From: Methanobacteriota archaeon
Lineage (GTDB): Archaea > Thermoplasmatota > Thermoplasmata > RBG-16-68-12
Reading direction: 5' to 3'
DNA: 64,000 nucleotides
Assembly: GCA_947084985.1 (NCBI GenBank)
Contig: CAMTUI010000005.1
Coordinates: forward strand, 2,358 to 66,357
In this document: piece by piece, positions 10,504-45,002 of the stretch
How the letters are laid out: every line of letters starts with the position of its first letter
Position numbering within the stretch: the first letter of the stretch is position 1
Notes under the pieces: model-generated
The model's input: the letters and a program-made list of their open reading frames with translations, nothing else
What the model was told of the DNA's origin: nothing
The model's database searches: none
Made by a program: the position numbers and the translations under genes

Positions 10504-10518
10504 TATAACGACGTTATA
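10504..10518. promoter_or_regulatory. Palindromic operator TATAAC-GAC-GTTATA upstream of beta-CA
   Basis: Perfect inverted repeat extends to GATATAACG-A-CGTTATATC (10502-10520). Confidence 0.7.
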
Positions 10519-10562
10519 TCAAGGCACGTCTTTTCTTCATTCGGAACAGAATATGTACACTA

Positions 10563-11096
10563 CTAAGCTGTCCGAGTTCGTGTGCGGGCCATTCCGTTCA
10601 GAATCTTGGATTTCTGAGGGTGCCATGAACCGACAATCGTGGCAAACCGCGGGATGGATTTCCGACTAACATAAAAGCGCCAGTAGTCCGGAGCCACTTG
10701 ATGACTCGGATTGTGAATCTGGCCACAGCTAATACGAAGCTGCTCGAGGATTCGTCGCAACTCCTCCAAATCTCCTCGGCTCCTTTGCGCGAAATACAGA
10801 TACGGCTCTGCTGCAAAACTCGCAGGGACACCGCCCTCGGCATCAAAATACCCCCTGGCATAGTCGAGCTTGTTTTCCCAAGTAAGAATCGCCGAGCCCT
10901 CAAGGACCGACCTCGAGAATTCCACGACGAAAAGATTGCGGCTCTTGCCCTCCCGATAAGTCCAGGCGCGAGATCCGAGTCGATTTACCAAGCGTTTGAG
11001 GAAGAGGACGTAGCGTTCCTCACGCTGCGAGATACGAATTGTTCTCGGTCGAATGGTGCCATCGTGCAGCGCGCCGAGCAAATATGCCCTGCTCAT
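10563..11096 (-). CDS. Free-standing two-motif LAGLIDADG homing endonuclease
   Basis: Motif 1 AYLLGALHDG, motif 2 DYARGYFDAEG; visibly lower GC than flanking genes; no intein ends or host exteins. Confidence 0.85.
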   Translation of the reverse strand: MSRAYLLGALHDGTIRPRTIRISQREERYVLFLKRLVNRLGSRAWTYREGKSRNLFVVEFSRSVLEGSAILTWENKLDYARGYFDAEGGVPASFAAEPYLYFAQRSRGDLEELRRILEQLRISCGQIHNPSHQVAPDYWRFYVSRKSIPRFATIVGSWHPQKSKILNGMARTRTRTA

Positions 11097-11198
11097 TCGT
11101 TATCCTCGTGTGACGCAGACTACGAGGCGGAGCCTCTTCGATTCAGCGGGAGGAGGTGGGCGAAAGTATCGGGAGCGTTCGCTGCTCCGCGATACCCC

Positions 11199-11205
11199 AA
11201 AAAAA
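11199..11205 (-). terminator. Putative U-tract terminator of the 16S transcript
   Basis: T7 run on the minus strand just beyond the 3' arm of the processing stem. Confidence 0.45.
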
Positions 11206-11284
11206 GGGAGTGGATTAGACGCTCGCGATCGGGAAGCAGAGGCCCTTTCTACCTTGCCAAGGCCTCCTTCGCCTGATGGCTCTT

Positions 11285-41787: not shown

Positions 41788-43747
41788 GGGTCAACACCGT
41801 CCTCTTCGCCGCCTTGCGGCGGGTCACCGCCTTGATCGCGTCGTACAGTTCCGTGCTCGACATCGGGCGGCCATTGTATTTGAGGATGCAATGGGTCATC
41901 GCAATCCCCGTCATCTCTCGCACAATCCCGGCGAGCTGCGCGCCGAAGTTCATCTCGACGGCCACGCGCCGCTTCGCCTTCGCAAGGTACGCGACCACGG
42001 ATTCGGTGGGGAACGGATTGATCAGGCGGACGTGCAGGTAGCCCAGTTTCGCGCCTTCCGCCCAGAGCCGGTCAAGGGCGTCGAGGAGCGGGCCCTTCGT
42101 GGAGCCCCAGCTCACGAGGACCGTGTCCGCGTCCTTCGGACCGAAGTAGCGGAGCTTGACGTCCTCCGGGATCTCCTTCGCCGCGAGATCAAGCTTCGCG
42201 AACCGCTTTTCCATCATGAGGTTCCGCAGGGCGGGGTCTTCCGTGATGTGCCCGAGCTCGTCGTGCTCGTCCCCCGTGTTCCAGAAGATCGTCCCCTCCT
42301 GGCCGAGGAAGGCGCGCGCGGACACGGGACCGTTGCCCAGGTCGAACCGCTTGTACGGGTTCTCCTTCGAGTAGCCGTTGTTCGGCGGGATGACCATGCC
42401 TCGGTCGATGCGCAGGTCGGACAGGTCCGGCACGGGAATCGTCGCATAGCTGTTCGCAAGGGCCTTGTCGACGAGATGGATGACGGGCATCTGGTACCGG
42501 TCCGCGTAGTTGAACGCCAGGAAGCCGTCCCGGATGGATTCCTCGAAATCCCCGGACGCAAGAAGGATTCGCGGGCACTCCCCGTGCCCGGCATGGAGGG
42601 CGAAGCGCAGGTCTCCCTGCTCATGCCGCGTCGGCATGCCCGTGCTCGGCCCCGCCCGCTGGTAGAGTGTGATCACGAGGGGCACCTCGTTGATCGAGGC
42701 CCACCCGATGCCCTCCATCATCAGGGAAAAGCCCGGGCCCGAGGTGGCGGTGGCCGCGCGGGTCCCCGTGAGGGCCGCGCCCGTGGCCATCGTGACCGCG
42801 GCAATCTCGTCCTCCGTCTGGACGACGAGGACGGACGCAGCTTTCTCGCCTCCGGCAGGCGCGACCGCGTGGCCGTTCAAATCGAGGATCTCGTTCTCCT
42901 CGAGATATTCGCTCTCGTCGCTCGCCGGGGTGATCGGGTAGTACGTCTGGAACCGCATGCCGCCGTACAGCTTGCCCAGGGCAATCGCCTGGCTCCCGGT
43001 CAGGAAAAGCCGCGGCATCGTCTGTTTCGTCGCCTCGAGTTGGTACGGGAAGTCGGGGACGAGGGACTTCGCGAGATCGTACGCCTTGCGCGCCCCCGCG
43101 GCGTTCATCCCGACGACCTTCGCCTTGCCGCGGAAGACGTCCTCCAGGGACTTCGTCATCGCGTCGAACTCGAAGCCCAAGAGGCCGAATGACGCGCCGA
43201 TGGCAATCATGTTGACAATGCGGGAGATCTTGCTGAGCTGGTCCACCTGGAACTCGTTCGCGATCTGCTCGAGGATCTCTTTGAACGGAATTGGCACGAG
43301 GGTCACGCCGCGCTGCTTCGAGGCCGCGAGCATGTCGTCCATCGTCTCGCCGAGGCCGCGGGAGATGAAGTGCGTCCGGAGGTCCGCGGCGAGGCGCTTC
43401 TCGATCGTCGGGATGTCGGAGAGCTTCGTCTTCCCCAGAGAAGGGTCGTAGATGATTGCGCCGTCGTCCGTCACCTCGCGCGCATGACGGAACAGGGTCT
43501 CCACCTCGAACGTCGCGAGGACGTTCACTTCGTCGACGTGCGAGCGCACGACATTCGTGTGGGCGCGCAGCGCGAAGTACGAGTGCTCGCCCATGATGTT
43601 CGAGTAGAACTCCCGCTTCCCGAAGACGTTCAGACCGCCCTGGGCGCACGCCCGAGCGAAGACGTTCGCGGACGACTCTACCCCGCTCCCCTGGGGACCG
43701 CCGATCATCCACGAGAGGTTGTTGACCTTCACCGCCGCCGGAGACAT
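41777..43747 (-). CDS. 2-oxoacid:ferredoxin oxidoreductase alpha (gamma-alpha fused) subunit
   Basis: [37 protein letters not shown]. Confidence 0.94.
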
Positions 43748-43960
43748 AGAACCACGCCGCCCTCAGGCCTCAAGGCACGGGGCCTTTTGGGCATTTAGCA
43801 ATTCCGCGGTGCCGCGGAGGCAGTAGCCGGCCAAGTGTTCGGCCGGAAGGCGCGCGGAACTGCGAATCCTCGACGATTGTCCGGCCACGGGGATGGGACA
43901 CAACGGCACCTTATCAAACCTTTCGTCCGAATTCAGCGATGGCGGATGGTCGCGCGTCGA

Positions 43961-44944
43961 TCACGGCGAGGGCGGCGACGTGTTAAGCTTCGGCGCGCGA
44001 CCTCGTGGCAGGACAAGCCGTTGCACGAACTCGTCCATGAACTGGAAACGGTTGCGGAGAGTCACCTCGCTCACGCCCGCGATTTTCGCGATCGCCTTCT
44101 GAGGCCGTCGCTCGCCGCAGGAAAGAGACGCCAGGTAGATCGCCGCCGCGGCCGTTCCCGCGGGTGACAGGGACATCGAGCTGTCAATCTTCTCGAGTTC
44201 CTTCAGGATCTTCAGGGACTCCGACTCGACGGTCGTGCTCAGCCCTAGGCGGGAGCAGAATCGACTCACATAGTCCGTCGGCCGGGACGGCGGGACGCGC
44301 AGGATGAGGGTCCGCAGGAGGGCCCCGTACGCCTTCCCGATCGTCTTCTTGCGCACGCCGGTGACCTGCTGCAACTCATCGAGCGTGCGCGGGACGCCGT
44401 CGATGCGGCAGGCGGCGTACACGGCGGCCGCGACAATCGCCTCGATCGATCGGCCCCGGACAAGGCCCTTTTCGAGGGCCTTCTTGCAAATGAACCCCGC
44501 TTCATCCTTGACGGGTTTCGGCAGGCCCATCAACGATGCAACGCGATCCAGGGCGCGGATCGTTTCCGGCAGGCTCCGCTCCCCAGGGCGGGAATGGCCA
44601 GAGTGACGCTGGAGTTTCCTCATGCGGTAGAACTTTTCTCGCTCCCTTAGCGGAATTGTGTTTCCGCGGGCGTCCTTGTTCGCGAGGGGGATGACCGTCG
44701 TCAGGCCGGACGACCCGGCCACGTAGCTTCTAGGCGCTCCCGTCCGGGCGAGCCGGTCGTTCTCTTCGATGGAATACGCGGACCACTCCGGTCCCTCGTC
44801 GATTGCGCTCTCGCTCACGACGAGACCGCATGAATCGCAGACGAGTTCGCCGCGTGCGTAGTCCCGGACAAGGTGCTCGCTAGCGCACTCCGGACACACG
44901 CGGTCCTCTTCGACAATCGATTCGACTGGCGCACTGGTGGGCAT
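43961..44944 (-). CDS. tfb: Transcription initiation factor B (TFB)
   Basis: CPEC...C..CG zinc ribbon, D.GPEW, GRS.E, PRTL.E, GVSEVTLRNR. Confidence 0.92.
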   Translation of the reverse strand: MPTSAPVESIVEEDRVCPECASEHLVRDYARGELVCDSCGLVVSESAIDEGPEWSAYSIEENDRLARTGAPRSYVAGSSGLTTVIPLANKDARGNTIPLREREKFYRMRKLQRHSGHSRPGERSLPETIRALDRVASLMGLPKPVKDEAGFICKKALEKGLVRGRSIEAIVAAAVYAACRIDGVPRTLDELQQVTGVRKKTIGKAYGALLRTLILRVPPSRPTDYVSRFCSRLGLSTTVESESLKILKELEKIDSSMSLSPAGTAAAAIYLASLSCGERRPQKAIAKIAGVSEVTLRNRFQFMDEFVQRLVLPRGRAPKLNTSPPSP

Positions 44945-44987
44945 GGGCCTCCTCTGCTCGCCTTCCCCGTCGGTTCGACCCACCTAA

Positions 44988-45002
44988 TATAACGGCATTA
45001 TA
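44988..45002. promoter_or_regulatory. Operator TATAAC-GGC-ATTATA upstream of tfb
   Basis: 11/12 consensus match within TAATATAA-N5-TTATATTA (44985-45005). Confidence 0.6.

Follow-up and report, generated by a model that had tools for sequence, protein, structure and literature searches.

A conserved palindrome at sulfur and Fe-S gene promoters of an uncultured Thermoplasmata lineage, and a candidate HTH-Cys/His protein as its reader

A stretch of 64,000 nucleotides from a Methanobacteriota archaeon of the GTDB class Thermoplasmata (assembly GCA_947084985.1, contig CAMTUI010000005.1) carries the palindrome TATAAC-N3-GTTATA (TATAACNNNGTTATA) upstream of several genes, and the question raised by this locus is what the palindrome does and which protein reads it. 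This stretch, the window, corresponds to C5:2358-66357 of a genome (G000) that counts 1,748,198 nt in 44 contigs and is 87% complete. The comparisons reported here suggest, with a probability that we would put at about two in three, that TATAAC-RNY-GTTATA is the operator of a dimeric factor for sulfur, cysteine and Fe-S metabolism, most likely a 128-residue protein made of a helix-turn-helix (HTH) and a Cys/His cluster.

The initial annotation of the window had placed the palindrome at 10504, 22376, 31409 and 44988, with a weaker copy matching 10 of 12 positions at 59223. The mismatches to TATAACNNNGTTATA at these five coordinates are 0, 1, 0, 1 and 2, and all five sites are intergenic and 5' of a minus-strand gene. 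The first four proved to be real, as they have 0-1 mismatches, lie between genes and are conserved at orthologous promoters. A chance origin had been thought improbable in DNA of this composition (G+C 62-67%) and this holds: after shuffling of the window the mean number of matches was 0.06 (maximum 1), and in the intergenic DNA of the genome (176,711 nt, delimited by codon-usage gene calls) 5 sites differ from the pattern by no more than one base, whereas 200 first-order Markov simulations gave 0.025 on average and never more than 1. A sixth such site, at C43:2267, was missed by the intergenic count because the gene caller had over-extended an open reading frame (ORF) start. All six are found in putative core promoters. 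With up to two mismatches allowed the whole genome holds nine matches (three each with none, one and two), five of them inside the window.

None of the other 18 genus genomes lacked the pattern with at most one mismatch, each having 1-6 sites, whereas the reversed pattern used as control gave 0 in 17 of the 18. In total such sites amount to 108 across 31 genomes. A subset of 69 was assigned to gene groups; these come from related genomes and hence are not independent, and the tally omits five of the six G000 sites, four of the five G001 sites and most sites of three lower-GC genomes in which the control counts equalled or exceeded the forward counts. Within this subset 55 sites lie no more than 160 nt upstream of an orthologue from one of ten gene groups, namely SufB (17), transcription factor B (TFB, 16), DsrE (6), rhodanese (6), the FTR1 iron permease (3), SufC (2), a beta-class carbonic-anhydrase-like (beta-CA-like) protein (2), a ThiS-ThiF fusion (2) and an IscA-type protein (1). 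The site of the TFB orthologue occurs at 16 places in 14 genus genomes and also in G022 and G028, which belong to two other families. Twelve more loci from other families of the order added cases for DsrE-TusA, the IscA-type protein, SufB and TFB.

Across the 69 sites the half-sites are constant and the central N3 varies, although positions 7 and 9, on which the search made no selection, are purine and pyrimidine in 82% of them. On these comparisons the palindrome is a real and specific element, being rare, located in promoters and conserved around a variable centre. Its targets are not functionally random either, since the six G000 sites precede the sufB operon, a ThiS-ThiF-rhodanese fusion, a DsrE-TusA pair, a rhodanese, the beta-CA-like gene and a TFB gene. 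The proposal of a sulfur/Fe-S regulon is therefore supported by the functions of the targets as well as by conservation at orthologous promoters, which was observed in 18 of 18 genus genomes and before the same gene groups.

The position of the sites gives an indication of their action. The distal half-site lies within a TATA-like stretch, preceded by an A-rich stretch resembling a TFB recognition element (BRE), at the promoters of sufB, tfb, the ThiS-ThiF fusion and the rhodanese gene. The dsrE promoters hold a conserved AAAGTTCATATAG 8-20 nt upstream of the palindrome, which there ends 6 nt before the ATG; because these promoters have this separate conserved sequence, the palindrome can be taken as an element distinct from the TATA box. 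Sites either overlap TATA-like sequence or fall between the TATA box and the start codon. The contact with the TATA box had been seen as what would be expected of a dimeric repressor, and a placement over it or just downstream of it fits. We infer repression, as a factor bound at this position should occlude the recruitment of TBP/TFB or of RNA polymerase. RNA runs, in the form of contigs, contained no more than 0.06 of the sampled words.

The initial annotation named no regulator but suggested looking for it among the Rrf2, ArsR, DtxR or TrmB genes, a suggestion that is probably wrong, as the best candidate belongs to an unannotated family. Its gene (G000 contig C1:63159-63545, minus strand, outside the window) was found through a site with three mismatches in its own promoter, AAATAC-CGT-GTTATA about 40 nt before the start. 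The 128 residues comprise an N-terminal helix-turn-helix (...GITQAAVSHY...) followed by a cluster, C95, C105-x2-H108-x9-C118-x2-C121, which is nearly invariant in the family, and G000 contains one family member only. In the Pfam scan HTH_3 (PF01381) alone was matched, with an E-value of 0.0054 and 17.2 bits against a cut-off of 23; the Rrf2 model was not matched in Pfam and NCBIfam returned nothing relevant, and ArsR- and DeoR-type models were not matched in either scan. The sequence search of the PDB gave nothing below an E-value of 0.5.

The AlphaFold model of the candidate is confident (pLDDT 86.7) and has seven helices, and apart from a generic HTH no convincing structural relative emerged. 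Foldseek found no PDB match for it at E <=0.001, and weak rows to HigA and C.Esp1396I had E-values of 0.6-1.6; VIA matches to the HTH domains of DeoR/SorC/LsrR proteins showed an rmsd of 1.1-1.6 A over 41-46 residues. XRE/HTH_3 repressors such as HigA and the C-proteins of restriction-modification systems appear to have a similar fold over the first ~50 residues, but the candidate differs from them in its C-terminal four-helix Cys/His part. For this part the best structural Z in VIA-align was 5.5, to Bcl-2-like bundles, and none of the matches was convincing. The 289 close homologues are all Thermoplasmata-type records, which are at most called 'predicted transcriptional regulator'. In a library of 1.84 billion proteins 2204 representative clusters were reached at E <=0.001; HTH_3 is annotated on 22-26% of the members of the ESM Atlas clusters, and look-alike clusters occur also in Nitrososphaerota and Bathyarchaeota.

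Four independent genomic contexts tie this family to the palindrome. In a sister family of genomes (f7) a tandem duplication of the HTH module, 241-244 aa long, stands between two suf operons in six of the seven sampled genomes, and the flanking suf promoters hold 12 sites out of 12 with at most one mismatch to ATAACNNNGTTAT. Some f7 genomes (L061 = G024:C27, 4013-5049; L080; L082) also have two paralogous ~160-aa genes between the tandem regulator and the second suf operon, which by eye look ferritin- or rubrerythrin-like. More distant homologues (32-41% identity, from named metagenome-assembled genomes, MAGs) were compared at 33 loci, of which 14 have a perfect TAACNNNGTTA core 33-60 nt ahead of the start codon of the homologue itself, and in 12 of these 14 the perfect core is unique within the ~8-kb locus. 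In the homologues of 58-63% identity CAAC-N3-GTTATATA takes the corresponding place, at 42-45 nt, and in the close group AATAC-N3-GTTATAC does so, about 40 nt from the start. These own-promoter cores, perfect in the distant homologues mentioned and progressively degenerate in the closer groups, point to a candidate regulator gene that carries the box itself and would be autoregulated.

Two further loci point in the same direction. The homologue of G156, a genome of family f21, is preceded at 80 nt by a perfect TATAACGCCGTTATA and is flanked by palindrome-bearing operons that encode PALP and Cys_Met_Meta_PP proteins on one hand and Thi4, DUF6775, ThiF and a cysteine desulfurase on the other. 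In G086 (family f10) the homologue gene is followed by TATAACGGCGTTATT and then by a pair of PALP (cysK-like) and hexapeptide (cysE-like) genes. Counts of the forward and reversed patterns over the class agree in part with such a link: families f1, f7, f10 and f21, in which the factor is present, gave 32 v 1, 16 v 1, 44 v 10 and 197 v 79, whereas f17 (factor in 1 of 37 genomes) and f24 (0 of 33) gave 2 v 3 and 112 v 287. The enrichment of the forward pattern thus appears in factor-bearing families whose G+C is high enough.

A number of observations weigh against this reading. The motif is not enriched in f12 or f29, two families with the profile hit (in 33 of 35 and 4 of 4 genomes, respectively), although their hits are weaker and may represent other subfamilies. 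The own-promoter copy of the genus has a degenerate left half-site, with three mismatches to the 15-mer, and the conservation of its half-sites is weak proof because the whole promoter is conserved in the genus. Because f7 carries the tandem form together with a single-module orthologue, the suf-linked regulator could there be the paralogue alone. Another 14 of the 69 sites adjoin other genes or none, three of them being beside ZIP-type transporters. Another regulator could also be absent from an assembly that is 87% complete, and all the support is comparative. Finally, the C-x2-H...C-x2-C motif of the candidate is present in paralogues fused to a ThiN domain.

The best placed of the alternatives, which we nevertheless hold to be rather unlikely, accepts the operator and the regulon but gives them to another factor, either one whose gene lies in the 13% of the genome missing from the assembly or an ArsR, Lrp, TrmB or MarR protein, so that the HTH-Cys/His gene would be merely one of the targets. 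The link of this gene with the palindrome does consist of gene neighbourhood and own-promoter sites, and a gene that bears a site can be a target instead of the reader. There are also two candidates at hand, namely a TrmB-family gene of the window (39978-40817), which keeps its synteny with the TFB gene in two genomes of another family, G028 and G023, and an ArsR-type gene (C26:15473-16060) with a three-mismatch site 88 nt upstream. However, the TrmB-like gene has no site with two or fewer mismatches nearby, the HTH-Cys/His regulator gene is the only one that recurs beside sites among f7, f9, f10 and f21, and in six f7 genomes nothing regulator-like other than its tandem form stands between the two suf promoters.

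It is much less probable that the palindrome is read by a DtxR-family iron-dependent repressor (G000 C26:34880-35440) and delimits an iron regulon. Iron regulators repress suf genes in some bacteria, and in three genus genomes (L137, L153, L156) the divergent spacer between FTR1 and the DtxR-like gene holds a site with no more than one mismatch; in G000 this spacer (C26:34790-34879) has a degenerate copy with three mismatches at the FTR1 TATA box. The site lies, however, 26-42 nt before the FTR1 start, which is the usual geometry of a target, and 35-157 nt from the DtxR start. The G000 spacer also contains TTAGGCTAACC, which resembles the classical DtxR/IdeR box, so DtxR probably has an operator of its own and the iron permease may be under dual control. 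Moreover, at the f7, f10 and f21 loci examined no DtxR gene adjoins the sites, and DsrE-TusA, rhodanese and ThiS-ThiF have sulfur and not iron functions.

Hardly any more credit, and if anything a little less, can be given to the idea that the palindrome is a core-promoter element recognised by the site-bearing TFB paralogue, which would provide these promoters with their own initiation factor and close a positive loop. In its favour, the site of this paralogue is among the most conserved, G000 has the palindrome at just one of its four TFB genes, and the TATA box often falls on the distal half. Yet a perfect palindrome would be unexpected for a directional TBP/TFB element, and the distance to the TATA box varies from overlap at sufB, tfb and rhodanese to a palindrome 8-20 nt downstream at dsrE. 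The same core is also found before HTH-Cys/His genes of distant lineages.

TATA boxes of archaea are AT-rich and nearly symmetric, and one of the copies, at 59223, is just of this kind, but that the whole set consists of palindromic-looking TATA boxes of AT-rich promoters has a negligible probability given 5 intergenic sites against 0.025, an empty reversed control in 17 of 18 genomes and orthologous conservation at functionally linked genes. The copy at 59223, which the initial annotation had counted as a weaker member, falls outside the regulon. It lies 12 nt before the start codon of a response regulator, and the 12 orthologous promoters of the genus have 5-6 mismatches in their best matches; CTTTATA alone is kept, in most of them. 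This sequence reads as a TATA box, and the copy is a TATA box joined to a half-site that arose by chance. A palindrome at C8:23760, TATGACCGCGTCATA, was likewise dropped as a member, because it has other half-sites and is placed within the start of an RHH-type gene. A reading of the site as an RNA hairpin was also set aside, though no folding was run, because it would have just a 6-bp AU-rich stem with a 3-nt loop and because the site is upstream of the inferred transcript starts.

With the HTH-Cys/His protein as the preferred reader, a mechanism can be proposed. In this uncultured lineage of Thermoplasmata a dimeric factor would jointly control how sulfur is mobilised, cysteine made and Fe-S clusters assembled. 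Its G000 targets would be the sufBCD-sufU-sufS-cysM-JAMM operon with the divergent IscA/ErpA-type gene, the ThiS-ThiF-rhodanese fusion, DsrE-TusA, a two-domain rhodanese, the beta-CA-like gene and one of the four TFB paralogues, to which the relatives add the FTR1 iron permease and a second IscA-type gene. When bound, judging from its position, the factor would block the recruitment of TBP/TFB or RNA polymerase and so repress these promoters. The Cys/His site could sense the Fe-S or sulfur status, or it could be a structural zinc site with another ligand acting on the protein. Since the ThiN-fused paralogues share the motif and presumably sense through ThiN, a structural metal site is favoured, and a structural zinc is at least as likely as an Fe-S sensor.

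The ferritin-like-fused paralogue does not have the C-x2-H...C-x2-C motif, and the HTH module seems to occur with more than one kind of sensor domain (ThiN, ferritin-like and Cys/His). At locus L138 (G012:C176) a 251-aa paralogue (693-1448, minus strand) contains the same HTH module (hhalign probability 94.8%) and an extra domain that is ferritin-like by eye. It is divergent from a gene for a ZIP-type metal transporter (1657-2460, plus strand), and TATAACGGCCTTATA is found between them, with the site at 1536. A bolder and decidedly tentative proposal would be that the HTH-Cys/His protein founds a large unrecognised family of archaeal regulators whose Cys3-His/Cys4 site carries an Fe-S cluster or a persulfide, as an archaeal functional counterpart of IscR/SufR.

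The likeness to IscR (Rrf2) and SufR, which are bacterial Fe-S-cluster-sensing repressors of isc/suf genes, resides in a small dimeric repressor with Cys/His ligands (as proposed here), a palindrome at the suf promoter, autoregulation and A-type carriers in the regulon. In the Rrf2/IscR family the Fe-S cluster is bound through three Cys and one His, for which the nearly invariant C95, C105, H108, C118 and C121 of the candidate offer possible ligands. The candidate has no sequence relationship to them, and its regulon goes beyond theirs with DsrE-TusA, the rhodaneses, the ThiS-ThiF-type sulfur carrier and TFB. SurR of the Thermococcales, an ArsR-like winged helix with a CxxC redox switch, responds to sulfur through the operator GTT-N3-AAC at sites overlapping core promoters, and it shares with the present case an archaeal sulfur-related regulon and AAC/GTT triplets placed 3 nt apart. 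As the initial annotation had remarked, the order of the half-sites is inverted with respect to the SurR consensus, all sites having AAC-N3-GTT within TATAAC-N3-GTTATA. Other differences from SurR are the extension of the half-sites by TAT/ATA, the lack of an ArsR-family Pfam hit in the candidate and targets that are biosynthetic instead of hydrogenase or sulfur-reduction genes.

A closer relative was found in proteins of ~305 aa from related genomes, whose N-terminal HTH module is homologous to that of the candidate (BLASTP E-value 5e-8, 31% identity over residues 1-81) and which have the same C-x2-H...C-x2-C motif. Their C-terminus matches the ThiN part of ThiDN (NF006346, E-value 5.9e-27) and their genes lie beside an NCS1-type permease gene. 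We take these proteins to correspond to ThiR, a palindrome-binding regulator of archaea, and a thiamine regulator of this name was reportedly described in archaea by Rodionov et al. in 2017. The DNA-binding module of the candidate is, by this sequence match, related to that of the ThiR-like proteins. Nevertheless the candidate ends at residue 128 without a ThiN domain, its targets are sulfur and Fe-S genes and not thiamine genes, and its palindrome differs in spacing and half-sites from the AACAC-N-GTGTT of the ThiR-like promoter spacers, which also contains AAC...GTT.

A literature search in which most subscription journals were not covered found neither the protein family, the operator, the motif, an archaeal suf regulator nor this regulon composition, and within the same limits it found no dedicated archaeal sensor for Fe-S assembly or sulfur trafficking. 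As far as this comparison goes, the operator, the protein family and the composition of the regulon may be new, and the logic is that of the IscR/SufR regulons and of archaeal repressors that occlude promoters. The regulon would cover SUF, cysteine synthesis of the CysO/CysM type and a sulfur relay of DsrE-TusA and rhodanese, together with an iron permease and a TFB paralogue. If the bolder proposal is true, Fe-S or sulfur status would be coupled to suf, cysteine-synthesis and sulfur-relay genes and to a dedicated TFB paralogue, in a two-tier cascade where a metabolic sensor switches a general initiation factor. The consistent inclusion of TFB suggests that paralogues of archaeal general transcription factors can join a metabolic regulon. 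The analysis provides a sharply defined operator, a coherent regulon and a concrete candidate from an unannotated family. Moreover, MAGs labelled Methanomassiliicoccales also contain both the factor and the motif; as this order includes cultured members, the two may be open to study in culture.

Operator copy 3 (putative; TATAACGTTGTTATA, 31409..31423) has no mismatch and is located 38 nt before the sufB ATG. It sits in the divergent spacer between sufB and an iscA/erpA-type gene, and its distal half overlaps the TATA-like ATTTATATAA. The sufB gene is preceded by a site in 17 further genomes. On the minus strand it opens a run of ten genes (22568..31370; NCBIfam and Pfam matches) in the order sufB, sufC, sufD, sufU, sufB-like, Rieske ferredoxin, sufS, sufU-like, cysM and a JAMM/Mec-type protease gene, whose tight spacing suggests a single operon. 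With two SufB-like and two SufU-like proteins and a Rieske-type ferredoxin besides SufC, SufD and SufS, the SUF set is more elaborate than is usual in archaea. The divergent gene that shares the spacer (31538..31882, plus strand) encodes an Fe-S carrier of the IscA/ErpA type (NCBIfam TIGR00049, E-value 4.2e-35), and the divergent layout is retained in relatives. A second IscA-type gene, on C41, has a site with two mismatches upstream. The remaining G000 sites with at most one mismatch outside the window stand before the DsrE-like and TusA pair (C29) and the two-domain rhodanese (C43).

Copy 2 (putative; TACAACGGTGTTATA, 22376..22390, 1 mismatch) lies 9 or 24 nt before the start of the fusion gene, depending on which of two possible GTG codons is used, and a TTAAATA stretch abuts its distal half. 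The gene (20906..22366, minus strand), a putative target, encodes 486 aa that join a ThiS/MoaD-like carrier, a ThiF/MoeZ-type E1 and a rhodanese (Pfam ThiS, ThiF and Rhodanese; NCBIfam MoeB/MoeZ). A site precedes the ThiS-ThiF orthologue on two G010 contigs (L144, L147). In the translation the carrier part ends in ...IAGG at residues 91-94, so the diglycine is internal and the carrier is N-terminal to its own E1-rhodanese enzyme. The JAMM/Mec-type protease of the suf run (22568-22987) could release the fused carrier, giving a CysO-CysM-type cysteine pathway that starts from a fusion precursor.

Copy 4 (putative; TATAACGGCATTATA, 44988..45002) has one mismatch, lies 43 nt before the TFB ATG at 44944 and abuts GGTATAATATAA with its distal half. 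The putative target is a TFB paralogue (43961..44944, minus strand; Pfam TFIIB and Zn_Ribbon_TF). According to tblastn G000 has four TFB paralogues, and the promoters of the other three have 4-5 mismatches at best. The TrmB-family gene (279 aa) is placed beside genes for a 2-oxoacid:ferredoxin oxidoreductase, 3 kb from this TFB gene.

Copy 1 (putative; TATAACGACGTTATA, 10504..10518) has no mismatch and lies 11 nt before the start codon of the beta-CA-like gene (9989..10492, minus strand), a putative target that encodes 167 aa (Pfam Pro_CA, E-value 4.1e-16). The orthologue of another genome, G006 (L021), has this site upstream as well. Directly upstream of this copy there is a LAGLIDADG_3 ORF of 177 aa (10563-11096), about 190 nt downstream of a 16S rRNA gene (11284-12984, minus strand; Rfam SSU_rRNA_archaea, 1426 bits). 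Near the 3' end of the rRNA a group I intron was matched (11335-11569; RF00028, 70 bits), and beyond it, at about 11284-11300, the canonical 16S 3' terminus ...GGATCACCTCC is found.

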